NCBI GenBank assembly: GCA_041649615.1
Contig: JBAZMT010000005.1
Coordinates: 1 to 58,319 of the forward strand
Direction: 5' to 3'
DNA from: Parcubacteria group bacterium
GTDB lineage: Bacteria > Patescibacteriota > Minisyncoccia > UBA6257 > Colwellbacteraceae
DNA length: 58,319 bases
Shown: positions 5,959 to 53,287 of the stretch, one piece after another
Layout: every line of letters begins with the position of its first letter
Numbering within the stretch: position 1 is the stretch's first letter
The notes under the pieces: model-generated
Database searches by the model: none
What the model was told of the DNA's origin: nothing
Seen by the model: the letters and a program-made list of their open reading frames with translations, nothing else
Position numbers and translations under genes: made by a program

Positions 5959-6848
5959 TTCTCCATGTCCCTTAATGCTTTTACCCTGTCCTCAATCGGG
6001 GGGTGGGTCATAAAGAGTTTCATAATGCCCATATTCTTGCCGTCTTTTATCGGGCTTGAGAGCCAAAGATGAGCAGTGGCGGAAGAGATGTGACGCATGG
6101 GGGTCGGATCGTCTGCAATCTTTATAAGCGCGTTTGCGAGGCCTTCCGGGTAACGAGTTAAAAGCGCTCCTGAAGCATCCGCCAAAAATTCCCTTTTTCT
6201 TGAGACGGCCAGTTGAATGAGCATCGCGGCAAAGGGGGCAATGATCGCACCGATAACCGAGAGCAAAGCGAAAACATTGTCTTCCGAGTTTTTGTTCCGG
6301 CTCTTAAAGATATTCGCCCTAAGCAAAGTGTCTGAAATCACGGAAATGAATCCGACAAGTACGACTATCACCGTTCCAAGCAACATGTCCCTGTTACCTA
6401 TATGGGAAAGTTCGTGGGCGATGACTCCTTCAAGTTCACTGCGATCAAGACGATCTAATAATCCTTCCGTTACGGCAAGAGCGGCGTGATTCGGGTCGCG
6501 ACCGGTTGCAAAAGCGTTTGGGGCCATTTCCGGCACGATATAGACTTTCGGCATCGGGAGTCCCGCGGTAATTGCGAGATTTTCAACGATTCGGATAAGT
6601 TCGGGATTGGTTTTTATCGTAACTTCTTCCGCTCGCGTGGAAGCAATAACGAACTTATCCGAGAACCAATAACTTACGATACTCATAAGCGAGGCTATGC
6701 CGGCAAAGACATAAAGAATTGTCGGATTGTTATACGCTCTGGAGATTATCCAGCCGAAAGAAATTACGAGTACTAGAAAAACGGTAATGATAATCCAAGT
6801 CTTGCGGATATTTCTATCCTTGTATTCGTATATCGTCGCCATTGGCAA
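5955..6848 (-). CDS. htpX: M48 family membrane protease HtpX
   Basis: 297 aa with HEXXH in VIAHELSHIGNRD, multiple TM helices and the THPPIEDR C-terminal motif. Confidence 0.9.
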   Translation of the reverse strand: MPMATIYEYKDRNIRKTWIIITVFLVLVISFGWIISRAYNNPTILYVFAGIASLMSIVSYWFSDKFVIASTRAEEVTIKTNPELIRIVENLAITAGLPMPKVYIVPEMAPNAFATGRDPNHAALAVTEGLLDRLDRSELEGVIAHELSHIGNRDMLLGTVIVVLVGFISVISDTLLRANIFKSRNKNSEDNVFALLSVIGAIIAPFAAMLIQLAVSRKREFLADASGALLTRYPEGLANALIKIADDPTPMRHISSATAHLWLSSPIKDGKNMGIMKLFMTHPPIEDRVKALRDMEK

Positions 6849-7424
6849 CTAAAATTCCACCTTAACGTTTTGGCGTTCCTCTTCGCTTCCCGCTTCAAAG
6901 AAAGGCTCTTCTTTAAACTTGAAAATATTCGCAACAATCACCGAAGGGAAAGTATTAACTTTAATGTTAAGCTCCCGAACGTTTCCGTTGTAGAATCGGC
7001 GCGATGCCTGGATTTTATTTTCCGTATCGGTAAGTTCGCGTTGTAAATCAAGAAAATTAGCGTTCGCTTTGAGATCGGGATAATTTTCGGCAACGGCGAA
7101 AAGAGTTTTAAGCGTGGCCGAAAGATGATTCTCCGCTTCGGCGCGATTTATGGGATTTCCGCCGGCGCTTTGAATTTCCGCTCGAGCTTTCGTGACGTTT
7201 TCCAAGACGTCTTTTTCGTGAGACATATATCCCTTGACCGTTGAAACAAGATTCGGGATAAGGTCAAAACGGCGTTTTAGTTGAACGTCTATGTCCGAGA
7301 ATGCTTCTTTGACTCTCTTTTTTAAAACTATAAGGCGGTTGTAAGTTGCCGCGAACCAAATTAAAAGAACGGCAATGACCGCCAGAATTACGAAGATTAT
7401 GGTCATGCATTGATTATACATCAA
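6849..7424 (-). CDS. lemA: LemA family protein
   Basis: 191 aa with an N-terminal TM helix, [33 protein letters not shown] and [12 protein letters not shown]. It is adjacent to htpX, as is common. Confidence 0.85.
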
Positions 7425-29982: not shown

Positions 29983-30114
29983 TCGCTTATTTTTTATTTA
30001 AAACCTTTATTTAATTATACAATAAGCGCAATTTGGGTTGTGGATAAACATTTGCAACAGGAGTGCGCGAGTCAGCCGATAAAAAGACAGGGGCTATGAT
30101 AAAATGAAGTCGTT

Positions 30115-31968
30115 ATGAAACTTTCCGTCCGGTATCGTCTGGACGCCGTTTTGTCTTTCTTTTTAATCGTTACCCTTACCCTTCATTTCAGTCGGATGCT
30201 TTCGGGTATAGGCGTTTACGTGCTTCCCATTATGGCCGTTATCGGTTTGGTACCCGTACTCTTGGGAGTAATTCGTTCGTTCCGCGAGAAAGAGTGGGCT
30301 TCAATGGATTCACTCGCTTCGGTGGCTCTTATATTTTCACTTTTAAGCCGTGAATGGATGTCCGCCGTTTTTATTGAGTTGATGCTTGCCGCCGCGCGAA
30401 TACTTGATGACGTTACGCGCGACAGGACGGAAAAGAGCGTTCGCGGTCTTTTGAAATTGCGGCCGGAAATCGCGCGGGTCGAAAAAGACGGAATGTTGGT
30501 TGATGTCCATATCCGGAGCGTTAAAATCGGCGATATTGTTGCCGTGGGAATAGGAGAACGCATGCCGGTAGACGGCATAGTGCTTTCGGGAAATGCGGCC
30601 GTCGATGAGTCGTCACTGACCGGCGAGTCGATTCCCGTGGATAAATCGGAGAAAAGTCGCGTAATGAGCGGAACGCTTATGCAATCGGGCAGTTTGCGCG
30701 TCAAAACGACTCACGTGGGTAAAGACACGACAATAGAGAGAGTGATAGCGCTCGTTGAATCGGCGCAGAATGAAAAACCTTCGGCGCAGACTTTGGGCGA
30801 ACGATTTGGGAAAATATATCTTATTTCCGTGTTTTTGGGAGTAATCGTTCTTTTTGCGATAACTCGTAATTTACCTCTTGTTTTAGCCGTAGTACTCGTG
30901 GTCTGCGCGGACGATCTCGCCATCGCCATACCCATTACCTATTTGCGAGCCATTCACGCGGCGGCCAATCTAGGAATTATCGTAAAAGGCAGCCGGCATT
31001 TGGAAATGTTCGGCAAGCTCCGGACGATCGTTTTTGACAAGACGGGAACGCTTACGACCGGCGTTCTTTCCGTAGCCTCGATTATCAGGACGAAAGGACA
31101 CTCTGAAGACGACGTGCTTGAATGGAGCCTCTTCGCCGATTCTTTTTCCAATCACCCAATATCGCGCGCTATCGTGAATTACGCCCTGGAGCGCGGATTT
31201 AAGACCACCGCTCCCGATTCCGCCGAAGAGAAGGGAGGTAAAGGGGTCGTAGCGAAGACAGGGAAAAACAAAATCGTTACCGGGAAAAGAATTTTTTTGG
31301 AGGAACAGGGCATCACTTTTCCTCCGGAAATCATTGAAGCCGCGGACAGGGAAGCTTCTCTTGGACGCAGCGTTTCTTACGTTTCCAAAAATGGGCGCGT
31401 TATCGGATGTATTACAGCGGCCGACACGATAAGAGAAAACGCCAAAAAATCGATAAAGGAGCTCCGAGAGCTTGGCATCCAAAAAATAGTCATGCTTACG
31501 GGCGACAATAAACGCGCCGCGGAAGCAATCGCTGAACAATTAGGCGTAGACGAGTGGCACGCCGAGCTCATGCCCGAAGAAAAAGTAGAAATTATAAGAC
31601 AACTTCAAAAAAATGATTTAGTCGCCATGGTCGGCGACGGAGTGAACGACGCAGCGGCGCTTTCAATTGCCGGCGTCGGTGTTGCCATGGGAGGTCTCGG
31701 CGCCGAGGGGACGATCGATTCGGCGCAAATTGTTCTAATGCGGGACAATCTCTTGACTCTTCCCGCAGCCATGCGCATCGCTCGGGCGGCGCGCCGAGTT
31801 TCAATTGAGGACTTCGGAATATGGGGAGCCACGAACGCTTGCGGACTCGCGCTTGTTTTTCTCGGATTTATCGGACCCGCGGGCGCGGCGGCTTATAATT
31901 TTCTTTCAGATTTTTTGCCCCTTTTTAATTCTATGAGAATAAAAATAAAACGACGTCAATTGTCGTAA
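30115..31968 (+). CDS. P1B-like P-type ATPase lacking an N-terminal metal-binding domain, with a non-canonical TM6 motif
   Basis: 617 aa with TGES, DKTGTLT, MLTGDN and GDGVNDA. Where CPC/SPC is expected, the sequence reads VVCADDLAIAIP. Confidence 0.85.
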   Translation: MKLSVRYRLDAVLSFFLIVTLTLHFSRMLSGIGVYVLPIMAVIGLVPVLLGVIRSFREKEWASMDSLASVALIFSLLSREWMSAVFIELMLAAARILDDVTRDRTEKSVRGLLKLRPEIARVEKDGMLVDVHIRSVKIGDIVAVGIGERMPVDGIVLSGNAAVDESSLTGESIPVDKSEKSRVMSGTLMQSGSLRVKTTHVGKDTTIERVIALVESAQNEKPSAQTLGERFGKIYLISVFLGVIVLFAITRNLPLVLAVVLVVCADDLAIAIPITYLRAIHAAANLGIIVKGSRHLEMFGKLRTIVFDKTGTLTTGVLSVASIIRTKGHSEDDVLEWSLFADSFSNHPISRAIVNYALERGFKTTAPDSAEEKGGKGVVAKTGKNKIVTGKRIFLEEQGITFPPEIIEAADREASLGRSVSYVSKNGRVIGCITAADTIRENAKKSIKELRELGIQKIVMLTGDNKRAAEAIAEQLGVDEWHAELMPEEKVEIIRQLQKNDLVAMVGDGVNDAAALSIAGVGVAMGGLGAEGTIDSAQIVLMRDNLLTLPAAMRIARAARRVSIEDFGIWGATNACGLALVFLGFIGPAGAAAYNFLSDFLPLFNSMRIKIKRRQLS

Positions 31969-43642: not shown

Positions 43643-43804
43643 TTAGATTTTAATTCCCTTTTTCTTTATTTCTTCCGAGATTTTTCCGCCCAAGGGGCGG
43701 CATTTACAATTTTTGGCATGTTCTATATGCCATTTAACTTTTTCGTCTAAAGTTGGATTTTTAGGCATTTTGTGAGTTAAATGCCATTTGGCGTTTAGTT
43801 TCAT
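43643..43804 (-). CDS. Small conserved-looking protein (53 aa) with a WH...H...C.C motif
   Basis: Own translation gives MKLNAKWHLTHKMPKNPTLDEKVKWHIEHAKNCKCRPLGGKISEEIKKKGIKI. It is below the track cut-off. Confidence 0.45.
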   Translation of the reverse strand: MKLNAKWHLTHKMPKNPTLDEKVKWHIEHAKNCKCRPLGGKISEEIKKKGIKI

Positions 43805-43813
43805 TTTAAGAGG

Positions 43814-44452
43814 TCATATGGCGGATTTGGTGTTAAGAACGGTTTCTGGTTCTTTCCCAAAGAAGGTTGTATTATCGTCCTCAATCAGTATGCCTTGTCC
43901 GTCTTTTAGCAACCGAATTGGGTATTTGGAATTCTTCATGTTTTCTTTTACTTCCGTTTCTTTTTCATCCGTGTAATGAGCCTTTAGTACGAAAGAAACA
44001 TAATTTAGAGCAGTAAAGTCTGTTACTCCGAATCTGTCTTTTCCTGTTCTATCCCAATCGGATACTTCGATAGTCGGACACATAATGTATGATCCCGCGC
44101 TTGTACCTATGTATATCTTTCCTTCCTCAAGAAATTCTTTAAGAACTTCCGCAAATCCGCTTTTTCTGATCGCTCTCAATAGATAAAATGTGCTGCCACC
44201 TTCAATGTGAATTATATTTTTGTCTTTAAACAGATTTATTAGTTCCTCTTTTGTTTTGCCTTCAATGTCTATTTCTTCAAAAGAATATCCATTGTCCTTA
44301 ATAATCTGCTTTAGCTTTTTATTAAAATCCGTCCTATCTCCTTTGGAAGCGGTCGTGATGTAGCCGATTTTCATCTGCTCTTTTGGAATACCTGTTAGAT
44401 TATAACCGTATTCTAGAAGGAAACTGATATCTGAACCAAGAATTAATTTCAT
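43814..44452 (-). CDS. Peptidase E-like S51 family peptidase
   Basis: 212 aa with IHIEGGSTFYLL and the nucleophile motif YIGTSAGS. Confidence 0.75.
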   Translation of the reverse strand: MKLILGSDISFLLEYGYNLTGIPKEQMKIGYITTASKGDRTDFNKKLKQIIKDNGYSFEEIDIEGKTKEELINLFKDKNIIHIEGGSTFYLLRAIRKSGFAEVLKEFLEEGKIYIGTSAGSYIMCPTIEVSDWDRTGKDRFGVTDFTALNYVSFVLKAHYTDEKETEVKENMKNSKYPIRLLKDGQGILIEDDNTTFFGKEPETVLNTKSAI

Positions 44453-44572
44453 TTCTCCGTTTTAAACATTTTTTCAAGTCCGGGAATTATATAATATAGT
44501 CTGCTATTTCAATAATTTCTTCTCTGCTTTTCTTAAGTTGTTTTTCGTTTTTAACATAAGGGTCTTCAATTT

Positions 44573-44998
44573 CTAACTAATACCGGCTAAGAATTCCAAA
44601 ACTTTCGGATGGAGAGATGTGGTAAAATATTGCGTTACATCTGTCGGCTTCACCCACTTGATTTCCGTAAATTTTTCACCTGCTTGTTCTGTGCCACCGG
44701 ATATCTCACAGAAATAATAGATGGAAAGAAATTCTCTTTTTTCCGGATATGTCTTTGCAAAGAAAACATTCTTTACGTTGACCTCCAGTCCTGTCTTAAT
44801 GCGGATTTGTTCTTTGAGATATTTTTCCAAGTCCTCTTCGTATGCGGGTCTCCCGCCGGGGAAAGTTCATGAGAGCTCTTTAATGAAGGGGTCGTTTTCG
44901 CGATGACCAATAAGAATCAGTTTTGTCTTGGGATCATAAACGACGCCAAGGACATTGACTATAAAAACTCCCTTATCAAATTGATTAAAATCAATCAT
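44573..44998 (-). pseudogene. NUDIX-fold protein gene interrupted by one in-frame TGA at the conserved Trp position
   Basis: Own translation from ATG 44998 gives MIDFNQFDKGVFIVNVLGVVYDPKTKLILIGHRENDPFIKELS-TGA(44869..44867)-TFPGGRPAYEEDLEKYLKEQIRIKTGLEV..., continuing in the same frame into track ORF 44573..44830. The Nudix box itself is degenerate. Confidence 0.7.
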
Positions 44999-45092
44999 TT
45001 TTGCTCCGGGAACATAATAACATTATGACTGTCCTTTCCGACTCGTGTCTTTGGATGTTTAGTTAGTTTATTTCATAATTCCAACCCGGTTG

Positions 45093-45604
45093 TCAAGATT
45101 TGGTTTTCCGCCAGTCTTCGGCGAATACTTGCTCCCACGTTTTACCTTTAAGTAGCACATCTAAGGCTAATTGAGGCGCTTTATGAGCAACGATAGCCAC
45201 ATGCTTTCCTCCGTAGTTTTGTTTTAGAAATTCTAAAAAATGGCAATACGGACTTTAACATCTTCATAACTTTCGCCATTTGGAAATTTTTCCGTGATCA
45301 TCTTTTCTTGAAGAGGTTCAACCGTTTCCGAGGGTTTGCCATTGTAGTCACCATAATTGCATTCACGAAGACGGGCGTCCTGGATTATTGGATAGATACC
45401 ATTCCAGGTAATAGTCGCTGACTGGACTGCTCTTTTCAGATCGGAGCAAAAGACGACATTAAACTTTTTGTCTTTTGTTTGGCCCCTTAATGCCTCCGAC
45501 TGCTCTATCCCTTTTTCGGATAGTTTTACATCCGACCAACCGGAAGAAACATCTCTTTGATTATCTGTCGTCATGCCATGGACAAAATATGTAATCTTTA
45601 TCAT
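45093..45604 (-). pseudogene. Histidine phosphatase (phosphoglycerate mutase family) gene with a frameshift in a homopolymer
   Basis: The first frame reads MIKITYFVHGMTTDN...RIAIF, then stops. Adding one T to the T6 run (plus-strand A6 at 45235..45240) continues as LEFLKQNYGGKHVAIVAHKAPQLALDVLLKGKTWEQVFAEDWRKTKS, ending at 45093. SD GAGGGAG precedes ATG 45604. Confidence 0.7.
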
Positions 45605-45897
45605 TGCTCCCTCGGTAGGAATTTCACTGCTCAATAAATTGCATCCGCAATTTATCTGCGTTTTAAAACCTTACGATTTTAATATTTACACCATGGAAAA
45701 TCTCTCGGTTTTCCGACCCATCTCGCCGAAGGCTAGCCGAGGCGGACCCTTTCCCTGTTCGATCCCTTCCGATACAAGTGTACAGAAAAAGTAGAAAACA
45801 AAAAAGCGCACATGCTCCTTTTTGTTTTCGGCTATGAACATGTCTGAAGCTTAAAATCGTTATTTTAAGCGTAGCGGTTTATATCGTTATGTGGAAC

Positions 45898-46254
45898 TTA
45901 TTTGTTCGAGTCTTTTTTGTCCTTTTCGTCTTTATCACTATTCCCTTCTCTTCTTTCCTTGGTCATAAAGTCATAATATCCTTCAAAGAATCCTTCCTCG
46001 TGGCTTCCTCTCCTTACAAAAAGATAAAACGGATAAATAAGAATGATGAGACCAATGATGTCGAAGAAATTATTTTTGAAATAGAGAATTATAAAGACGC
46101 CTATCAAGGCCAGAACAAGAAGCAGTGGAGAATTTATTGTCTCTACGTTGCCCATAAGCTTATGGTATTCTTCTCGGAACCGGCTGATTTCTTCCTCACT
46201 CGCGTTTTTAATGTTCCTTGCGTGTTTTTTAATGTTTTTGGAGTTTATCTTCAT
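45898..46254 (-). CDS. Hypothetical two-TM membrane protein
   Basis: 118 aa with a central hydrophobic hairpin and K/D/E-rich termini. The gene is AT-rich. Confidence 0.5.
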   Translation of the reverse strand: MKINSKNIKKHARNIKNASEEEISRFREEYHKLMGNVETINSPLLLVLALIGVFIILYFKNNFFDIIGLIILIYPFYLFVRRGSHEEGFFEGYYDFMTKERREGNSDKDEKDKKDSNK

Positions 46255-46264
46255 ATCTTATTTT

Positions 46265-46405
46265 TCACTTCTTCCTAATTATTCTTATGATGACCGAAGC
46301 GACCGCTGCGATCAGGAGCAGGTGAATAAGCCACCCTGCCGTTTTTAAAACGAAAACCCCAAGAGCCCAAGAAATGGCAAGAACAATTGCTACCGCCCAA
46401 AGCAT
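46265..46405 (-). CDS. lmo0937-like small two-TM membrane protein
   Basis: Own translation gives MLWAVAIVLAISWALGVFVLKTAGWLIHLLLIAAVASVIIRIIRKK. An alternative start at 46423 would add MLKIKN. It is below the track cut-off. Confidence 0.55.
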   Translation of the reverse strand: MLWAVAIVLAISWALGVFVLKTAGWLIHLLLIAAVASVIIRIIRKK

Positions 46406-46691
46406 ATTCTTTATTTTAAGCATTGATTGATGAAAGACACACGACCAGATGTCTTAATGCTGATTATACCAGAAAGTGCCATGCTGATCTCGCTTATCCA
46501 GTAAAATTTTCCGTGTCGGTGGGAATTATATGGCAGATTTGTGGAATCGGGTATTTTGTAATAACAAACTATAATAACTTTTTAATTAAACTAACGCGAG
46601 AATGGCCAGATGGAAAAAACTCTTCTTGTCGGACAAATACTTTGTAACCGTTTTTTTACTGTCGTTGAGACGAATGCGTTGGTGAAAAATA

Positions 46692-46835
46692 ATGCTCCAA
46701 ACTCTGGACGCCGTTAGAACTATCATCCTGCAGGGTCGGAGGCCCTACGAGATGGAAGCGGCCGTTAAAATGTTAAGAGGAGAGGAACCTTTCGCTGGAG
46801 AAACGATCAAGTGGATGGAGGCCGCAAAGCATTAG
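46692..46835 (+). CDS. Possible 47-aa ORF (or gene remnant)
   Basis: MLQTLDAVRTIILQGRRPYEMEAAVKMLRGEEPFAGETIKWMEAAKH, with GGTGA 6 nt upstream. It is GC-richer than its flanks and convergent with the 1178-aa gene. Confidence 0.25.
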   Translation: MLQTLDAVRTIILQGRRPYEMEAAVKMLRGEEPFAGETIKWMEAAKH

Positions 46836-46849
46836 GCCGACTTATTTTC

Positions 46850-49800
46850 TTAATCACCGTTTATTACTTCTTTAAGATTCCAAAACATACTGTTGCCTTT
46901 TTCAATCAAAAGGTTAATAAGATCGATAACTTTCTGCTTCATCGCTGTATCGCCAGCCTTATAAATTATGTCGAGGGATTGTTTAATTTCATTGTCGAGA
47001 TTAAATAATGGCGCACGTCGATTCTGGTTCAAATTACCAGTTGAATCCAATAGGAAATGCTGGATTATTTCTAAAGTCTTTTCTCCATTTTTTTGAGCAA
47101 AGACGGGGAGCCTTCTCATAAGACCGTAATCCCAGTCGATATCTCCATTTGATTTCTCAAGCGTCTCTGCTACTCGTCCAATCACCTCTTCATCACTCAA
47201 GACTTCTTTATTTGGATTTATCCAAAATCCAAAACCCGCAAGGGGCTCCGGCTCCCTAACGTTCTCCAATGCCCAATCCCAAAACTTCAATAGTTTATCC
47301 TTACTAACTTTATTTTCATTTAGCCATTCATCTCCAGCTTGATCTCGAATTAAGCAGCTGCGACCAATGAAGGATATGAACTCTTGATATCTCTTAGAAT
47401 TAGACGTGCTCCAAAATTGCTGAAATAGCGAGTCCTCGATTTCAAGACCTAAATGAGCGAAAGCAAGCGCGATGTGGACCGCTAGGGATTCATCAAGCCC
47501 CTTGGAGTACTTTCGCCCTGTGTAGATCTTCGGATCAAGAGTAATCGCGTGGCTATAATAAGCACTAAGGTCGATAAAAAGTTTATCGTAGAGAGTATTG
47601 GAAAGATATCCTTCCCAGCTTGCTAGATAAAGGTCTTTTTTAGCAGGATCATCTTTAGGGAATATTTCCGGCAAAAGCCCAGTAACAAATTCCTTATCTC
47701 GAAAATAAAAGGTCGCCAAGTATCGACCAATGACAAACCGAACCGCAAGCGAATCATCAGCAAGAGCCTGCTTAAATAAAGCCTTTGTATCGTCGGCCAA
47801 AGTCTTGCCATCATTCTCAGTGAACACGACAAACGCCTCGTATGCCCGGCCACGCACAGAATTAATCGCCACATGATAAGGCTCACCGTACTCTGGTTTC
47901 TCATGCTCCTTGGAAGGACTATCTTTTATAGACAGAAGGTATGAAATTAAATCCTTTATTTTTATTCGGTTTTGTTTGTGATTATCATCTCGTGTTTCTT
48001 TATTCTCGAGAATGTATAACAGAGCGTCGGTTATTACCTTATGAACTTCAATCCAGTCTGCAAGCCATGATTTATCGTCTTTACGCCTAAAAGGAGTTGC
48101 CTCGCCGCTTTTTTTGATCGCGTCGCAGAGACCTAATAATTGTTCTATCTGAATTAGCGTCAATATTTGTTTATTACGAAGCATCTCTTCAATGCCGCGC
48201 AGAAGTGAATATACATAAGCAGGATGAATATTATCTCGATCGAAGAAAGAAGTGATTTTGCTTAGGTATTCATCGGTGCGCTTTTTAACGTCCTCTTTAA
48301 TAGAATCACCCAAACCTTCCACACCTCGAGGGCTAAGAAAATCGTCATCTTTAAACTGCTCCTTTAATTTCTCTGGAGACCAGTCTGATTTTAGATTTGC
48401 AATAATTTGGTCAACAGCGTAATCCGCTACATTCACCGGGGACCTGTGAGCAACAAAACCAGATTGAATTTTTCCTACAGAAGGCTGAGGAGTATATTCT
48501 GCGTCACACTTGCTTCCAAATATTTCTTCACATTTTTCCGCCTCTTCTACTGTAAGGTGAGTACAAATGCTAGATATAATCTCCCAGCCTGTACGTTTAT
48601 GCCAGGCCTGATCTGGATGCTCCTCCGCTTTCTTCGAAAAATAACTGAATACCTGAGCGACATAAGTACGCTGATCAGCGTCGTCAAGGTAATAAAATCC
48701 AATTTTTAGAGTTTTTTTGTATTCAGTCCCACCTTCAATATCGTAGTAATTTTCTACCTCAAATAATTTGAAAAAGGCGGCCTTAAGTTCTGTCTTAAAT
48801 ACAGTCGGGCATTGAGAAAGAGCAAACATTCTTAAACGCCATGTTGCCCGACAAGTTGGAAGAGTATCAATATATTCAAACAGCCTCTTGGCATTAGCAG
48901 GAGTATCACATTTCTTGCCGATCGTTCCTTCGATCAATTTCTTTATAATCGCAGCAAGATTTTTTATATCCTCTCGGTATGAATAACTGTGTTTATCTTC
49001 AATCTCTAAGGTGAAAATATCGACATCATACAAAGAAAATAGATCTGAATATTGAAATGCTCCAGAATCGTCTGGCGTAGCTAACTTAACAATCTCACTC
49101 ATGACGGCCGTAGTTATTTGCAAGGCTTTTTCCTTATGCAAATCATCAATACCTTCTAATGCCTCAAAAATACCGGAAGCATCAAGATCACTAGCATAGA
49201 ACGGATCGTCCATACCAAAACCAGCAGCTTTTTCAGCCATCTCCGCTTTGCTTTTAGCTAACAGCATCGCCTGTGCTAATTCCAAAATAGCGTCATTCTC
49301 TCTTTTCTCTACTAACTTTTCTACGATTCGAGTAAATTCATAACCGCTTTTACGGAAACTGCGCATAAGATAAACCCACTTCTCATCACGAATCTTTGCT
49401 GTGAGCGTCTTTATTTGTTCTGCCGGAAGCGAACCGATAATCCACATAAAGCGGTCTACCACTTCAGGATTGAAATTTGCTTCAGAGATCGAAGCAGATG
49501 TAATAATCTCAGCAACCTTGATTGGGTTCTTATTGACCATTCGAAGCAGATATTCCAATTCTGAAAGTCGATAAGAATAACTAGTTGTATTTTCTGCTTT
49601 CTTTTTTATCTCATCGAGAAAGCCGTTCTTCCAAAGCCACTCAATCCGAGTTTCATTGGCCTGCGAAAAGAAGTAACGCTTAGCGTCATAGCTCAAAGAG
49701 AACAGTAACCACAAGTATGACGCATCCTGATTATTCTCTTTAAGGAAAGCGTCGATCTTCTCGTGAATCTTGAGAGGATCAAGCGATGATTCCTTCAGTG

Positions 49801-50386
49801 TATTTTCAAATACTTGAACAAGATTATTAAAATCTTTTTCTGTGGGAAAATCCTTCTCATCTACAGTTATCCCAAGCTGTTTAAATATTCTTATAGCACC
49901 TTCCTTACTTTTCTTTTCTGCAAAGTGATGCGAGATTTTTGTAAAAGCTAAATGGGTTTTATATAGGGTGTTGGCAATGATTTTTGCACGTTTCTGTTCG
50001 TGAAGGACTTCAAGGACGCCTCCAATTTTCTCTCTTTTTGTCTGAAGGTTAAGAAGCTTATTGAGAGAATTATTTTTAAACCCAAACTTACTTAACAATG
50101 AATAAAGCTTAACCTTAATTTTGAAATAAACATTCTGATCCTTTTGGCCCCCTAGTCTATAAAGCAGTTCCCGGTAAGAATGAGCAGACTGAGCCATCCA
50201 ATCAGGGTTAGAAGTGGCACTATGTACAACAGCTAGCGCACCTTTAATCAGGTCAGATGGCAAAACTCCATCCGGACAAATTTTTTCTTTCTCGTTAAGA
50301 CGATCCAAATAATTACAAATCCACTCTTGATGTGACTCAAGTTTAAGTGGTCGATCTATCTTGATGTCTAAGTCCTTATCTTCCAT
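46850..50386 (-). CDS. 1178-aa orphan protein, apparently all alpha-helical repeat, with no catalytic or NTP-binding motif recognised
   Basis: It is one uninterrupted ORF in an AT-rich island. I found no Walker A, HEXXH, PD-(D/E)XK, HNH or TM segment. It is divergently transcribed from the LexA-methyltransferase gene. Confidence 0.75.
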   Translation of the reverse strand: MEDKDLDIKIDRPLKLESHQEWICNYLDRLNEKEKICPDGVLPSDLIKGALAVVHSATSNPDWMAQSAHSYRELLYRLGGQKDQNVYFKIKVKLYSLLSKFGFKNNSLNKLLNLQTKREKIGGVLEVLHEQKRAKIIANTLYKTHLAFTKISHHFAEKKSKEGAIRIFKQLGITVDEKDFPTEKDFNNLVQVFENTLKESSLDPLKIHEKIDAFLKENNQDASYLWLLFSLSYDAKRYFFSQANETRIEWLWKNGFLDEIKKKAENTTSYSYRLSELEYLLRMVNKNPIKVAEIITSASISEANFNPEVVDRFMWIIGSLPAEQIKTLTAKIRDEKWVYLMRSFRKSGYEFTRIVEKLVEKRENDAILELAQAMLLAKSKAEMAEKAAGFGMDDPFYASDLDASGIFEALEGIDDLHKEKALQITTAVMSEIVKLATPDDSGAFQYSDLFSLYDVDIFTLEIEDKHSYSYREDIKNLAAIIKKLIEGTIGKKCDTPANAKRLFEYIDTLPTCRATWRLRMFALSQCPTVFKTELKAAFFKLFEVENYYDIEGGTEYKKTLKIGFYYLDDADQRTYVAQVFSYFSKKAEEHPDQAWHKRTGWEIISSICTHLTVEEAEKCEEIFGSKCDAEYTPQPSVGKIQSGFVAHRSPVNVADYAVDQIIANLKSDWSPEKLKEQFKDDDFLSPRGVEGLGDSIKEDVKKRTDEYLSKITSFFDRDNIHPAYVYSLLRGIEEMLRNKQILTLIQIEQLLGLCDAIKKSGEATPFRRKDDKSWLADWIEVHKVITDALLYILENKETRDDNHKQNRIKIKDLISYLLSIKDSPSKEHEKPEYGEPYHVAINSVRGRAYEAFVVFTENDGKTLADDTKALFKQALADDSLAVRFVIGRYLATFYFRDKEFVTGLLPEIFPKDDPAKKDLYLASWEGYLSNTLYDKLFIDLSAYYSHAITLDPKIYTGRKYSKGLDESLAVHIALAFAHLGLEIEDSLFQQFWSTSNSKRYQEFISFIGRSCLIRDQAGDEWLNENKVSKDKLLKFWDWALENVREPEPLAGFGFWINPNKEVLSDEEVIGRVAETLEKSNGDIDWDYGLMRRLPVFAQKNGEKTLEIIQHFLLDSTGNLNQNRRAPLFNLDNEIKQSLDIIYKAGDTAMKQKVIDLINLLIEKGNSMFWNLKEVINGD

Positions 50387-50407
50387 AATTTCAGTTTCTA
50401 ATTATCC

Positions 50408-50448
50408 ACACTTACATTTTCGTAAGATTTTCGGTATACTATAAGTGT
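50408..50448. promoter_or_regulatory. Divergent control region: putative promoter embedded in nested inverted repeats (candidate operator)
   Basis: On the plus strand, TTACAT (50412-50417), a 17-nt spacer, then TATACT (50435-50440). The inner inverted repeat is CTTAC(50411-15)-N6-GTAAG(50422-26). The outer one is ACACTTA(50408-14)...TAAGTGT(50442-48). Confidence 0.4.
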
Positions 50449-50479
50449 ATCACCTAAATTTAAAAACATCGATCAATCT

Positions 50480-52009
50480 ATGCCTATACCAATTACTAAA
50501 AGACAAAAAGAGGCTCTGGACTTTATAAAGAAGTTTATCCGTAAGAAAAAATACCCTCCAACATTGGAGGAAATATGTTTGGGGCTTAAGCTTTCGGCGG
50601 TCTCAACTGTCCATCAGCATATAAAGGCCTTGGCCGAAAAGGGTTATTTAAAAAAGGTTGGAAATAATGCTCGAGCTATTCATATCTACGAATCTGAGCC
50701 TATGATCCAAATTCCCTTCTTGGGAACAATCGCGGCAGGAGAGCCAATCGAAGCAATCAGACAAAACGAGTTTATATCAGTACCAAAGGCAAAACTACCG
50801 AAAAGCGGGCAAGTTTATGCTTTGCGTGTGAGCGGCAATAGTATGATTGATGAAAATATTAAAGACGGAGATGTTGTTTTGGTAAAACAGCAAGAGGTGG
50901 CAGAAAACGGCCAGCGAGTAGTTGCTTTGATAGATAACTATGAAGCAACCCTAAAGAAATTTTATAAAGAGCGTGCGCAAATTAGATTACAACCCGCAAA
51001 TTCAGCCTACGAGCCGATAATCATTAGAAAAGATCGGGATATAAAAATTCAGGGAATTGTTGTTGACGTTATTCAAAATGAAAAAGAACTACTAGCGGAG
51101 AAGATAGAAACAGCGACTGTAAAAAGAACAAAAACTTTGCCACTCAATAAAATTATTTTAGGAGACGCGGTGGCAGAACTAAAAAAGCTCCCAAGTGAAA
51201 GTTGTGATGTTATCATAATCGACCCCCCTTACAATATCGGCAAAGATTTTGGGAATAATATTGATAAAAGAGAATTGAGCGAATACGTTGCTTGGTGTAA
51301 AGAATGGATAAACGAGTGTATTCGTGTGATGAAGCCGACAGCAACTATGTTTATTTACGGTTTTAGCGAAATCCTTGCTCATTTGTCGGTAGGGATACCA
51401 ATAAACAAACGTTGGCTTATTTGGCACTACACAAACAAAAATATTGCCTCTCTTAATTTTTGGCAAAGAAGCCACGAGGCAATTATTTGTGCGTGGAAAG
51501 ATAAACCGACTTTTAATCGCGATGAAGTTAGAGAGCCATACACCGAAGGGTTTTTGAATGGAGCCGCGGGGAAAGTGAGGAGAGGAACACTCGGCAGATT
51601 TAGTAAAAATGGAATAGAAACTGTTTACAAAGCACATGAAGGCGGAGCATTACCTCGCGATGTCATTAAAATTGCCGCTTTAGCCGGTGGAGCGGGAATG
51701 GTTGAAAGGTGGTTTTTGTGCAAAACTTGCAATGATGTTTTTGAACCGCAAGAACTACAAAAACACAGCGGACACAAAATTATGAAGCACCCAACACAAA
51801 AACCGCTTGAACTTTCGCGAAAACTTATAAAATCGGCAATGCCTAAAAAAGACGGGGTTGTCTTAGTGCCGTTCGTTGGTACTGGCTCGGAGTGTGCGGC
51901 CTCAAAAGAATTAGGACAATCTTACATCGGATTTGAAATAAACCCGGACTATGTGCGAATAGCGGAAAAAATGGTTGATAGTGTAAGAATTGCTCCTAAA
52001 TTATTTTAG
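50480..52009 (+). CDS. Fusion protein: full-length LexA (wHTH + S24 autopeptidase) joined to a beta-class N6A/N4C DNA methyltransferase
   Basis: Residues 1-200 carry the LexA wHTH, the FLGTIAAGEPIEA cleavage site (A-G), the Ser box RVSGNSM, the Lys in EATLKKF and the ending IQGIVVDVI. Residues ~215-509 carry motif IV IIIDPPYNIG, HPTQKPLEL and motif I VLVPFVGTGSE. Confidence 0.85.
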   Translation: MPIPITKRQKEALDFIKKFIRKKKYPPTLEEICLGLKLSAVSTVHQHIKALAEKGYLKKVGNNARAIHIYESEPMIQIPFLGTIAAGEPIEAIRQNEFISVPKAKLPKSGQVYALRVSGNSMIDENIKDGDVVLVKQQEVAENGQRVVALIDNYEATLKKFYKERAQIRLQPANSAYEPIIIRKDRDIKIQGIVVDVIQNEKELLAEKIETATVKRTKTLPLNKIILGDAVAELKKLPSESCDVIIIDPPYNIGKDFGNNIDKRELSEYVAWCKEWINECIRVMKPTATMFIYGFSEILAHLSVGIPINKRWLIWHYTNKNIASLNFWQRSHEAIICAWKDKPTFNRDEVREPYTEGFLNGAAGKVRRGTLGRFSKNGIETVYKAHEGGALPRDVIKIAALAGGAGMVERWFLCKTCNDVFEPQELQKHSGHKIMKHPTQKPLELSRKLIKSAMPKKDGVVLVPFVGTGSECAASKELGQSYIGFEINPDYVRIAEKMVDSVRIAPKLF

Positions 52010-52693
52010 AGATTGATCTATTTCTGCCCTCTCTCTTTCAAAAGCAAAAGGAGTAAAAACAACAAATCCATTGGGAAGTCTCTTTAATTCTTTATTCGTC
52101 ATAAATCTTGAATAGGGCAACTTATATGCACCGTCTTTTTTCTTTGGATTAACAAAATAATCATCGCTCGGTACTTCGTATTTTATATCAATAAATTTTC
52201 CGTCTATAATTTTCTTTGATTTTTTCTCCGCTCTAACCTCTCTGCTAAAAGTCGCTTTCTTAACTTGATAATTCAATATCACTCCATGGTATTTGACTTG
52301 AAAGTCGGCCCCTTGATGATCTAACTCCGCTGACATTGCAACCGTTCCGTCGCCGTAGACTGATTCCGCAACATAACCGGCATGAATTTGCGTAATGATG
52401 CTTGCCCATGTGCGATAAATTCTCGCCGGAAGTCCGCGATAAAAACAATCCTTGCACATTGTTATCTTTTGTCGGAATGATTCAATTTCTGATTTTTTAG
52501 AACCGAGATACTCTTCATAAAAATCCTCAAAGTCTAAAAATTTCTTTTGGTCCCAATAGACTTTGTACAGCATTTCTATCACCTGTATTTCTTTGGGCAA
52601 GTCCATTTCAACGAGTTTAATTGGCCTATATTTTTCGCGATAGACCTTAAGATCAACCGACTCTAAAAATTTTGTAAATTTATTTAGCAACAT
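52001..52693 (-). CDS. Putative type II restriction endonuclease (cognate of the fused methyltransferase)
   Basis: 230 aa, directly downstream of a C-protein gene and convergent with the methyltransferase (9-nt overlap). A possible PD-(D/E)XK-like core is ELDHQGADFQVKY...NYQVKK. The call rests mainly on context. Confidence 0.5.
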   Translation of the reverse strand: MLLNKFTKFLESVDLKVYREKYRPIKLVEMDLPKEIQVIEMLYKVYWDQKKFLDFEDFYEEYLGSKKSEIESFRQKITMCKDCFYRGLPARIYRTWASIITQIHAGYVAESVYGDGTVAMSAELDHQGADFQVKYHGVILNYQVKKATFSREVRAEKKSKKIIDGKFIDIKYEVPSDDYFVNPKKKDGAYKLPYSRFMTNKELKRLPNGFVVFTPFAFERERAEIDQSLK

Positions 52694-52696
52694 AAG

Positions 52697-52915
52697 TTAT
52701 ACGAAATACGAAACAGGCTTTTTGTAAATTTCCGCAATATTTTTTAACTCGGCAACATCAAGACGCCTTTCGCCGGACTCTATTTTTGAGATATAGGATT
52801 GCGGTTTGCCTAATTTATCGGCTACCGCCTGTTGGGATAAGCCAGCTTCAATACGCGCCGTTTTTAAACGCTCTATAATGTCTTTGTAATCTTTTGAGTA
52901 AGCTGACTTGCTCAT
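52697..52915 (-). CDS. XRE-family HTH controller (C) protein of the R-M system
   Basis: 72 aa. ARIEAGLSQQAVADKLGKPQSYISKIESGERRLDVAELKNIAEIY has the size and position (4 nt upstream of the R gene) typical of C proteins. Confidence 0.75.
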   Translation of the reverse strand: MSKSAYSKDYKDIIERLKTARIEAGLSQQAVADKLGKPQSYISKIESGERRLDVAELKNIAEIYKKPVSYFV

Positions 52916-52949
52916 AGTTATTTCTATGATATATCCTATTGTGGTATAA

Positions 52950-52962
52950 TCCCAAAATGGGA
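52950..52962. promoter_or_regulatory. Candidate C-box palindrome upstream of the C gene
   Basis: TCCCA-AAA-TGGGA is a perfect inverted repeat, flanked by TATAAT-like hexamers (52945-50 and 52963-68), about 35-50 nt upstream of the C start. Confidence 0.35.
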
Positions 52963-53178
52963 TATAATATGTTTATAGATCTAGTTGCCGAAAATTTTTT
53001 GCAAAGCCTAAGCGATCTGTCCGCTGAAGCATTAGGGCAGGCGGGAGTGAGGTGGTTAAATAAGGTTCCGCTTTTTGGATTTGTGTATTAGATTTGGCAA
53101 AGTGATTTCAAAAGCATGCCCCGTAAGGAGCTTGCTTTCCTGTGGGGTTTGCGAAGGTTTTAATTCGGGAGCAAACGC

Positions 53179-53208
53179 AAAAAAGATGCCACAAAAGCAT
53201 CTTTTTTT
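53179..53208. terminator. Bidirectional hairpin terminator downstream of tRNA-Asn
   Basis: AAAAAAGATGC-CACAAAA-GCATCTTTTTTT is enclosed by an outer inverted repeat GGGAGCAAA (53167-75)/TTTGCTCCC (53212-20) that reaches into the tRNA 3' end. Confidence 0.7.
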
Positions 53209-53215
53209 ACATTTG

Positions 53216-53287
53216 CTCCCCCGGTAGGATTCGAACCTACAACCCACTCCTTAACAGGGAGTCGCTCTACCATTGAGCTACAGGGGA
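53216..53287 (-). tRNA. tRNA-Asn (anticodon GUU), no encoded CCA
   Basis: On the minus strand: acceptor TCCCCTG, TA, D arm GCTC-AATGGTA-GAGC, G, anticodon arm ACTCC-CTGTTAA-GGAGT, variable GGGTT, T arm GTAGG-TTCGAAT-CCTAC, acceptor CGGGGGA, discriminator G. Confidence 0.9.

Follow-up and report, generated by a model that had tools for sequence, protein, structure and literature searches.

Contig JBAZMT010000005.1 of a Parcubacteria group bacterium (assembly GCA_041649615.1), whose 58,319 nucleotides were analyzed as a whole and are hereafter called the window, encodes a 509-amino acid (aa) protein in which an entire LexA repressor is fused to a DNA methyltransferase (MTase). We lean towards the view that this protein belongs to a mobile Type II restriction–modification (R-M) system, probably TCGA-specific, in which the modification gene (M) is placed under a dedicated LexA and DNA damage would shift the system from restriction to modification. 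The fusion gene (50480–52009, + strand) was taken from the list of open reading frames (ORFs) and was supported by Pfam and NCBIfam matches. All of the following features lie on the plus strand. The protein begins with a winged helix-turn-helix (wHTH) domain (LexA_DNA_bind, residues 4–66, 50489–50677; PF01726, 3e-16), followed by an S24 protease/dimerization domain (Peptidase_S24, residues 79–195; PF00717, 4e-32) and a beta-class, N6-adenine-type MTase domain (N6_N4_Mtase, residues 243–497) with a DPPY motif at 51221–51232. The cleavage site A86-G87 (50735–50740) and the catalytic residues S121 (50840–50842) and K159 (50954–50956) were all located, which bears out the LexA-MTase fusion with cleavage site, Ser, and Lys described in the first-pass annotation of this DNA. 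The score against the NCBIfam lexA model TIGR00498 was 190.8 bits, compared with a cut-off of 110.95. The Ala-Gly site, the Ser, and the Lys were unchanged in all 85 of the related LexA parts and likewise across 46 distant fusions, and we strongly infer that the fusion keeps everything required for RecA*-stimulated self-cleavage.

Among the fusion homologs, the DPPY motif was invariant, and the wHTH was the most variable part. The MTase part is not of the gamma-class M.TaqI type, which has Eco57I/TaqI_C domains, but a beta-class N6_N4_Mtase with DPPY, and its nearest solved relatives were M.MboIIA, M.RsrI, and CcrM. Four residues in an insertion within the MTase domain, C414, C417, H429, and H432 (CKTC...H..H, residues 414–432, 51719–51775), were also invariant and may form a zinc-binding element in the target-recognition region. 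Inside the wHTH-coding region, a perfect hairpin with a 6-bp stem (CCTCCA-ACAT-TGGAGG, 50555–50570) is followed by T/A-rich tracts; it gave a terminator-like score on both strands and may merely reflect the PPTLEE codons.

A Predicted Operator Matched to the LexA Recognition Helix

The 93-bp divergent region that the first-pass annotation had placed between the fusion gene and a 1178-aa gene was confirmed (50387–50479, intergenic, common to both genes). It contains a promoter-like match for the fusion gene (−35 CTTACA, 50411–50416; −10 TATACT, 50435–50440; + strand), and the predicted LexA operator, a direct repeat TTTTCG-N5-TTTTCG with an 11-bp period (50417–50433, half-sites 50417–50422 and 50428–50433, + strand), sits between the −35 and −10 elements. 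The hexamer-repeat geometry recurs upstream of approximately 80 fusion genes and six unfused LexA genes, and nearly all loci share one layout, which reads, 5′ to 3′, TGTGGATAA(C), a spacer of approximately 10 nt, the −35 element, the hexamer direct repeat with its 11-bp period, and the −10 element. The hexamer type tracked the residue flanked by the two recognition-helix histidines: phenylalanine was accompanied by TTCTA in 49 of 49 loci, and glutamine or glutamate by a TCG/TAG-G repeat in 21 of 21. Helix and hexamer co-varied in all 70 classifiable loci with zero cross cases, counts that are not phylogenetically independent. One exact operator was present in the 58 kb of the window, and one per 12–17-kb locus elsewhere.

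The window fusion itself is chimeric. Its wHTH was 67% identical to that of locus L088; for 80 beta-class fusions, the figure was 58% at most. Its S24-MTase part was 88–97% identical to beta-class fusions, and the S24 domain showed this level of identity to its best beta-class match (L009) and approximately 50% to L088. A 39-nt intergenic block showed 100% identity between the window and L088. Because the wHTH and the operator are both of the L088 type while the S24 domain is of the beta-class type, the two move as a unit, which is the mark of a cognate pair. The position of the repeat and its co-variation with the helix support the control region with an operator matching the wHTH that had been proposed earlier, and the combined data constitute strong in silico evidence that the LexA part binds the direct hexamer repeat in its own promoter and represses its own MTase gene. 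A palindrome (CTTAC-N6-GTAAG, 50411–50426) was also considered as the operator; it occurred once, compared with 0.72 expected occurrences, and was not conserved at other loci. It was dropped in favor of the 11-bp direct repeat because only the latter was conserved everywhere.

These results bear on a simpler explanation, according to which the LexA part is a dimeric self-repressor that sets the level and timing of M during establishment, in the manner of M.SsoII-type enzymes, with the protease as a passenger. An operator located within the promoter of the gene itself and varying in step with the helix would be expected under this explanation, and there is precedent in MTases with N-terminal regulatory domains (PMC3978073, PMC6100179). 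However, a 70-aa HTH would do for autoregulation, and the Ala-Gly site, Ser, and Lys are invariant in the 85 close and 46 distant fusions, which cover four MTase classes. Selection on cleavage is likely because of this invariance, and we regard plain autoregulation as an improbable full account of the protein.

Upstream of the −35 element, a DnaA-box-like sequence, TTATCCACA, which is identical to the DnaA-box consensus, was found at 50402–50410 (+ strand) as a conserved upstream element. The motif TGTGGATAA/TGGGGATAA or its complement occurred within 110 nt upstream, before the −35 element, in 68 of the 84 LexA-R-M loci (among L008–L087 and L252–L257). The orientation of the TGTGGATAA element is reversed in the window, L088, and L142. 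The window contains two copies, compared with 0.24 expected; the other copy of TTATCCACA (30039–30047) lies approximately 70 nt upstream of a P-type ATPase gene (30115–31968). The TGTGGATAA element may be a DnaA site, a site for another factor, or a cassette boundary.

The Fusion Gene Converges on a TaqI-Family Endonuclease Gene

Downstream of the fusion gene, a 230-aa protein is encoded on the opposite strand (52001–52693, − strand). The first-pass annotation had called it a putative endonuclease, and it was identified as a TaqI-family Type II restriction endonuclease (REase, gene R) by its matches to RE_TaqI (3e-38) and to PADLOC REase_II. The two genes overlap tail-to-tail by 9 nt (52001–52009). 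A 72-aa HTH_3 controller (C) protein is encoded 3 nt upstream of the REase gene in the same orientation (52697–52915, − strand; Pfam HTH_3 1e-16 and PADLOC Control_protein models), and a C-box of two adjacent palindromes, ATCCCA-TTT-TGGGAT (52949–52963) and TATACC-N5-AGGATA (52932–52948), lies upstream of the C gene (52932–52963, − strand). This arrangement supports the assignment to the C-controlled R-M systems. The C-box recurred upstream of the C genes of over 15 loci, and its half-sites varied in other lineages of C proteins.

To determine which partners are conserved, 80 genomic fusion loci were scanned for the other three proteins of the window, with the loci that had room as denominators. 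A TaqI-family REase gene abutting and convergent with the fusion gene was present in 59 of 70 loci and a C protein gene in 23 of 66, and the 1178-aa protein was present at none of the 51 beta-class fusion loci with enough upstream DNA. The stop codons of M and R overlapped by 9 nt in 52 of 64 loci and by 4 nt in six of 64. Given these partner counts, the conserved unit consists of the LexA-M gene converging on R, with C optional.

The tetranucleotide TCGA was strongly avoided in the host DNA of the window (72 observed compared with 231 expected; observed/expected ratio [O/E] 0.31). It was the most avoided 4-mer palindrome, the next lowest having a ratio of 0.73, and the R-M genes of the window gave an O/E of 0.37. 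In the flanks of 50 REase-bearing loci, TCGA likewise ranked first in avoidance, with a median O/E of 0.34 compared with 0.80 in control loci of the Candidate Phyla Radiation (CPR) (p = 7e-12). The REase specificity is probably TCGA, and the avoidance, together with the DPPY motif and the relationship to M.MboIIA, M.RsrI, and CcrM, points to an R-M system that is active on TCGA with N6-adenine methylation. At 11 loci, the fusion occurred without a detectable TaqI-family REase (L024, L029, L030, L041, L050, L051, L061, L072, L074, L085, and L086), and TCGA was still avoided in their flanks (pooled O/E 0.47). These loci could reflect loss of the REase, its swap for an unrelated REase, or solitary LexA-MTases.

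LexA-Headed R-M Systems Are Widespread in Patescibacteria

The fusion is not confined to the window. With a word-indexed search, over 100 clusters (at 90% identity) of 501–513-aa proteins with the same three domains and 74–83% identity were recovered; the hosts included Falkow-, Jorgensen-, Gribaldo-, Taylor-, and Parcubacteria among others, and the NCBI name was mostly "transcriptional repressor LexA." In a scan of one genome per species, full-length fusion homologs with 66–83% identity were found in 181 species, nearly all of them Patescibacteria. An assembly artefact or a frameshift fusion was ruled out because the same architecture is common to more than 100 independent clusters and the genomes of 181 species.

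The architecture also extends beyond close relatives. An exhaustive search of 1.84 billion representatives revealed dozens of clusters, mutually at most 50% identical, in which an N-terminal LexA is joined to the remainder of a 430–840-aa protein. All 46 scanned representatives contained both LexA domains and a DNA methyltransferase. These 46 diverse fusions had overall identities of 23–42% and fell into four MTase classes (N6_N4, 31; D12, 5; Eco57I/N6_Mtase/MmeI, approximately 5; C5, 2).

An unfused LexA family of approximately 208 aa, with 75–89% mutual identity, was also found in Patescibacteria, with the next gene 3–27 nt downstream or overlapping. At six of seven such loci (L096, L252, L253, L255, L256, and L257), LexA is followed by a DNA MTase gene that converges tail-to-tail on an REase gene. 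The REases were of the Alw26I type at L096 and L252, of the HindVP type with a C protein at L253, and of the BsoBI type at L257; no known type was assigned to those of L255 and L256. At L255, a gene for a Vsr mismatch endonuclease (6602–7003) separates LexA from a C5 MTase, and a CBASS (cyclic oligonucleotide-based antiphage signaling system) pair, CD-NTase and Cap15, lies immediately upstream of the LexA-R-M module (L257:4063–5584). At L254 (7001–9202), the unfused LexA gene has the same promoter head and is separated by 3 nt from a large serine recombinase gene, which stands in place of the MTase gene; the pair may be a clue to cassette movement, or a LexA-controlled mobile element.

This distribution can be compared with the possibility that LexA is the cell's global SOS repressor, with R-M cassettes preferentially landing behind lexA or fusing to it, for example by site-specific recombination, so that M hitch-hikes on the lexA promoter. 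Such an origin would account for a score above the NCBIfam lexA equivalog cut-off, for the lack of another LexA in the window, for the serine recombinase at L254, and for a window gene that is recombinant within lexA. The presence of pilM/N/O and type II secretion system genes near LexA-R-M in L001, L253, L254, and L256 gives a hint of a conserved chromosomal site. However, the LexA parts are 66–89% identical across many candidate phyla while the promoter-side flanking genes are unrelated, a pattern in keeping with LexA being transferred horizontally along with R-M. Some single metagenome-assembled genomes (MAGs) contain two copies (L046/L047 and L042/L057), and each locus has one operator, with none elsewhere in the 58 kb of host DNA. 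A captured host lexA therefore seems unlikely to us.

At these four loci, which are on unrelated contigs, pilM/pilN/pilO and genes for type II/IV secretion ATPases were located in the downstream flanks, no more than a few kb from LexA-R-M, and the vicinity of pilus/DNA-uptake genes could be a chromosomal hotspot for LexA-R-M. In the two MAGs with paired copies, each carries two beta-class LexA-MTase, REase, and C modules; the recognition helix and operator type are near-identical within the MAG for L042/L057 and identical for L046/L047. The pairs could reflect cross-regulation or strain mixing in the bins. A phage origin was considered and rejected: viral contigs (IMG/VR) hold only the unfused MTase domain, at 50–56% identity, and the large protein is essentially absent from them. 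The nearest unfused MTase-domain relatives are frequent on viral contigs (L171–L250), many of which are labeled giant-virus MAGs.

A Proposed Damage-Induced Shift From Restriction to Modification

In the proposed mechanism, M would be kept low in the steady state, self-limited by the LexA part. DNA damage would produce filaments of RecA on single-stranded DNA, and the sources of damage would include cuts by the endonuclease of the system itself at TCGA sites that are unmethylated following repair, recombination, or under-methylation. The LexA part would then be cleaved at A86-G87, the wHTH would be lost, the promoter would be derepressed, and the methyltransferase would rise, with the S24-MTase fragment predicted to be a still dimer-capable enzyme. 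Stronger transcription of M would also be expected to dampen R, by transcriptional interference or antisense, because the genes converge, their stop codons overlap, and there is no room for a terminator, so that transcripts of M would necessarily run on into R. The net outcome would be that damage tips the system from restriction to modification, as a Type II equivalent of Type I restriction alleviation. On entry into a new host, the same circuit would give M first and R later, and at a third of loci, the C protein would add a second delay on R. The divergent large gene would be co-induced as a separate, recently arrived add-on.

The first-pass annotation had predicted that damage would sever the DNA-binding domain from the enzyme. 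This idea does not hold well for the unfused LexA-M operons, which have the same promoter and would act by transcriptional induction of M instead. Because the fused and unfused versions share the promoter head, their shared logic is likely to be LexA-repressed, damage-inducible transcription of M.

Several points weigh against this proposal, in addition to the phylogenetic dependence of the helix–hexamer counts. The dependence on RecA, the cleavage, the binding to DNA, and the direction in which R would change are deduced from sequence. In the 58-kb window, neither a RecA gene nor a second copy of the exact operator was found, nor was a second LexA. The AlphaFold2 (AF2) model of the fusion had a mean predicted local distance difference test score (pLDDT) of 56, from an alignment shallow in diversity, and is too poor for domain geometry. 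Cleavage might instead destabilize the MTase; in E. coli, LexA fragments are reported to be degraded by ClpXP, in work cited by PMC4231737. Higher M during phage infection would, moreover, weaken defense.

The Large Divergent Gene Encodes a Solenoid Protein Added to Many R-M Types

The 1178-aa gene (46850–50386, − strand; ORF list) had been described as a helical orphan. The protein is indeed helical throughout, as its AF2 model (pLDDT 89.3) is an all-alpha solenoid, but it is not an orphan: approximately 190 homologs were found, all on Patescibacteria-type contigs, in two length classes of approximately 980 and 1180 aa. There were zero family matches in Pfam, PADLOC-DB 2.0, and NCBIfam, and a profile search of the PDB returned only a designed helical repeat (E-value 0.53). 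Foldseek matched the model to importins, CAND1, and SF3B1 (E-values 6e-6 to 2e-4), with template modeling scores of only 0.12–0.22. The model suggests a HEAT/ARM-like solenoid, an assignment of fold class only that implies no function. No nuclease, NTPase, or other effector domain was recognized by Pfam, PADLOC, NCBIfam, the PDB profile search, or Foldseek.

Homologs of the ~980-aa class are always preceded by an overlapping gene of approximately 210 aa, whose product resembles the first ~200 aa of several homologs in the long class (E-values down to 4e-8); split forms matching the N-terminus of the window protein itself gave E-values of 1e-8 to 1e-10. Because of these matches and the existence of split forms, the 1178-aa protein is a fused A+B unit, with an A part of approximately 200 aa (roughly 49787–50386, − strand) and a B part of approximately 980 aa (46850–49786, − strand). 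At approximately 52 loci, the two genes upstream of the A/B unit were overwhelmingly of R-M systems and included approximately 30 DNA MTases, nine ResIII proteins, type I S subunits, DpnII, AlwI, GmrSD, and HNH. Operons ending in the unit had the orders DpnII REase–MTase–unit, Type I HsdR–YgjP–unit, SNF2 helicase–MmeI-type MTase–unit (twice), and Type III Mod–Res–A–B, and no conserved third gene was found downstream of the unit.

Head-to-head arrangements with LexA-headed R-M systems of other types were found at four loci besides the window, with spacings of 90–94 bp at L088, L096, and L142 and approximately 370 bp at L097; the units at these loci were 38–91% identical to the window protein. 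The large gene contains 24 TCGA sites (O/E 1.31), compared with ratios of 0.31 for the host DNA and 0.37 for the R-M genes, and since TCGA is undepleted in it, it appears to be a recent arrival beside a TCGA system. If the REase is active, all 24 sites must stay methylated. A four-gene module was ruled out on two grounds, the co-occurrence at 0/51 loci and the undepleted TCGA of the large gene. A simple scan gave no promoter-like site for the large gene. Since this gene shares the operator region, co-induction with the fusion gene is probable, and the two are plausibly co-regulated through it. Judging from its gene neighborhoods, the large protein is a generic add-on to R-M systems (Type I, II, IIG, and III) and not a conserved member of the LexA-M module. 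The earlier claim that the large gene is wired to LexA-M stands in part, namely in the head-to-head arrangement at four other LexA-headed R-M loci and the R-M linkage of the family, and is weakened by its absence from the 51 fusion loci.

The large protein also enters a different explanation, close to the damage-triggered second line of defense suggested in the first-pass annotation. Here, RecA* cleavage would inactivate or destabilize the MTase and derepress the large protein, and either the endonuclease would kill the unprotected cells or the large protein would act as a back-up effector. The invariant cleavage residues fit this explanation, as does the protease sensitivity of E. coli LexA fragments reported in work cited by PMC4231737; the large protein shares the operator region in the window and at the four other loci, and its family is consistently linked to R-M. 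On the other hand, unfused LexA-M operons with the same promoter cannot act by severing an enzyme, the large protein is found at 0/51 beta-class fusion loci, it has no nuclease, NTPase, or other effector domain, and it lacks a promoter-like site in the simple scan. We accordingly consider a suicidal or second-line response doubtful, and weaker than induced methylation.

The proposal of damage-induced modification can also be put more broadly. LexA may be the standard R-M controller of Patescibacteria, fused to the MTase or encoded first in the M operon, with a portable head containing a matched operator; damage would raise modification and, by way of overlapping convergent transcription, lower restriction, and the A/B unit would be a hitherto unrecognized, universal R-M add-on that stands here under the same SOS switch. 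We offer this wider version tentatively, at somewhat less than even confidence.

Relation to Known Regulatory Systems

The window fusion probably works like the M.SsoII/M.Ecl18kI family without being a member of it. In both, a single polypeptide combines DNA methylation with binding to an operator in the promoter region of the R-M genes and thereby limits its own synthesis (PMC3978073, PMC6100179), the operator being predicted in our case. In contrast to the ~70-aa HTH of that family, the fusion carries a full LexA of approximately 200 aa with an S24 self-cleaving/dimerization domain. R is convergent here and divergent there, and M.SsoII is a C5 MTase whereas the window enzyme is of the amino type. 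The LexA fusion is, moreover, found with MTases of the beta, alpha (D12), gamma, and C5 classes. The C-controlled Type II systems Esp1396I, Kpn2I, and PvuII resemble the window in having an HTH_3 C gene just before R and a two-palindrome C-box (PMC3488213, PMC6237814). They differ in that C is optional here (23/66 loci), M has its own regulator in LexA, and C proteins have no damage sensor.

The LexA part resembles canonical LexA in its domain pair, cleavage site, Ser-Lys dyad, and predicted autoregulation, and it is especially close to the alphaproteobacterial type, since the Caulobacter LexA box is a direct repeat, GTTCN7GTTC, with the same 11-bp period (PMC9578287). Unlike canonical LexA, the window type is dedicated to an R-M MTase, to which it is often covalently joined, moves horizontally with R-M, and showed no sign of a regulon, with one exact operator in the 58-kb window. 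The SOS response is triggered by R-M imbalance and by post-segregational killing, with RecA/RecBCD mending the breaks (PMC3874152). Damage and recombination give rise to unmodified sites, for which reason Type I systems require restriction alleviation afterwards (PMC4231737). The purpose proposed here is the same, namely, protection of the chromosome when damage and repair create unmodified sites (PMC4231737, PMC11109961). In Type I alleviation, ClpXP degrades HsdR, whereas here, M would be induced, possibly with interference on R, through a RecA*-sensing repressor.

Other defense and stress genes also respond to damage. CapH/CapP of CBASS are damage-responsive regulators of defense. The toxin genes tisB, symE, and yafNO are wired to the damage signal through LexA repression (PMC3874152). 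In these and in CapH/CapP, a toxic or effector arm is induced, whereas in the system proposed here the protective, antitoxin-like arm would be under LexA control and fused to it. As for genes added to R-M operons, PrrC, an anticodon nuclease, is encoded by a non-R-M gene embedded in the R-M operon of EcoprrI and has a known effector domain. The A/B unit is likewise appended to R-M operons but has no catalytic signature and is attached to all R-M types.

R-M systems are the commonest bacterial immune systems and are hazardous to their own host. To our knowledge, how Type II systems avoid self-killing after damage and recombinational repair is poorly understood; known alleviation concerns Type I enzymes, and we know of no established mechanism of this kind for Type II systems. 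If correct, our proposal would describe the first transcriptional restriction-alleviation circuit for Type II, with a self-cleaving SOS sensor in or before the protective MTase as a simple and portable solution seen with at least four MTase classes and in hundreds of species. The ultra-small CPR bacteria rely heavily on R-M and have few regulators, and LexA-R-M bears on their biology. The matched wHTH/operator variants would form a natural set of orthogonal damage-inducible repressor–operator pairs, and the A/B solenoid unit provides a second lead, as a large conserved family linked to R-M systems of every type. The full-text literature, in a survey of incomplete coverage that included a 2026 preprint on CPR methyltransferases, gave no account of LexA-MTase fusions or of R-M operons headed by LexA. 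The first-pass annotation had regarded an R-M MTase with a whole LexA as undescribed; this agrees with the literature, within that coverage, although the architecture itself is widespread. LexA-governed R-M appears to be undescribed, while regulatory MTase N-termini, C proteins, toxins under LexA control, and alleviation in Type I systems are already known.

Genomic Context

The four genes and the adjacent tRNA-Asn gene (53215–53287, − strand) were all found where the first-pass annotation had placed them; the view of the four as one unit was not sustained, as the large protein is absent from the 51 fusion loci. The tRNA-Asn gene flanks a low-GC island of approximately 43.8–53.2 kb (GC 0.389 compared with 0.456), which ends on the 3′ side of the tRNA gene. 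No integrase was seen in the island (43800–53200). Besides the large solenoid gene and the R-M genes, it contains a peptidase S51 gene, a histidine-phosphatase fragment, and small ORFs.

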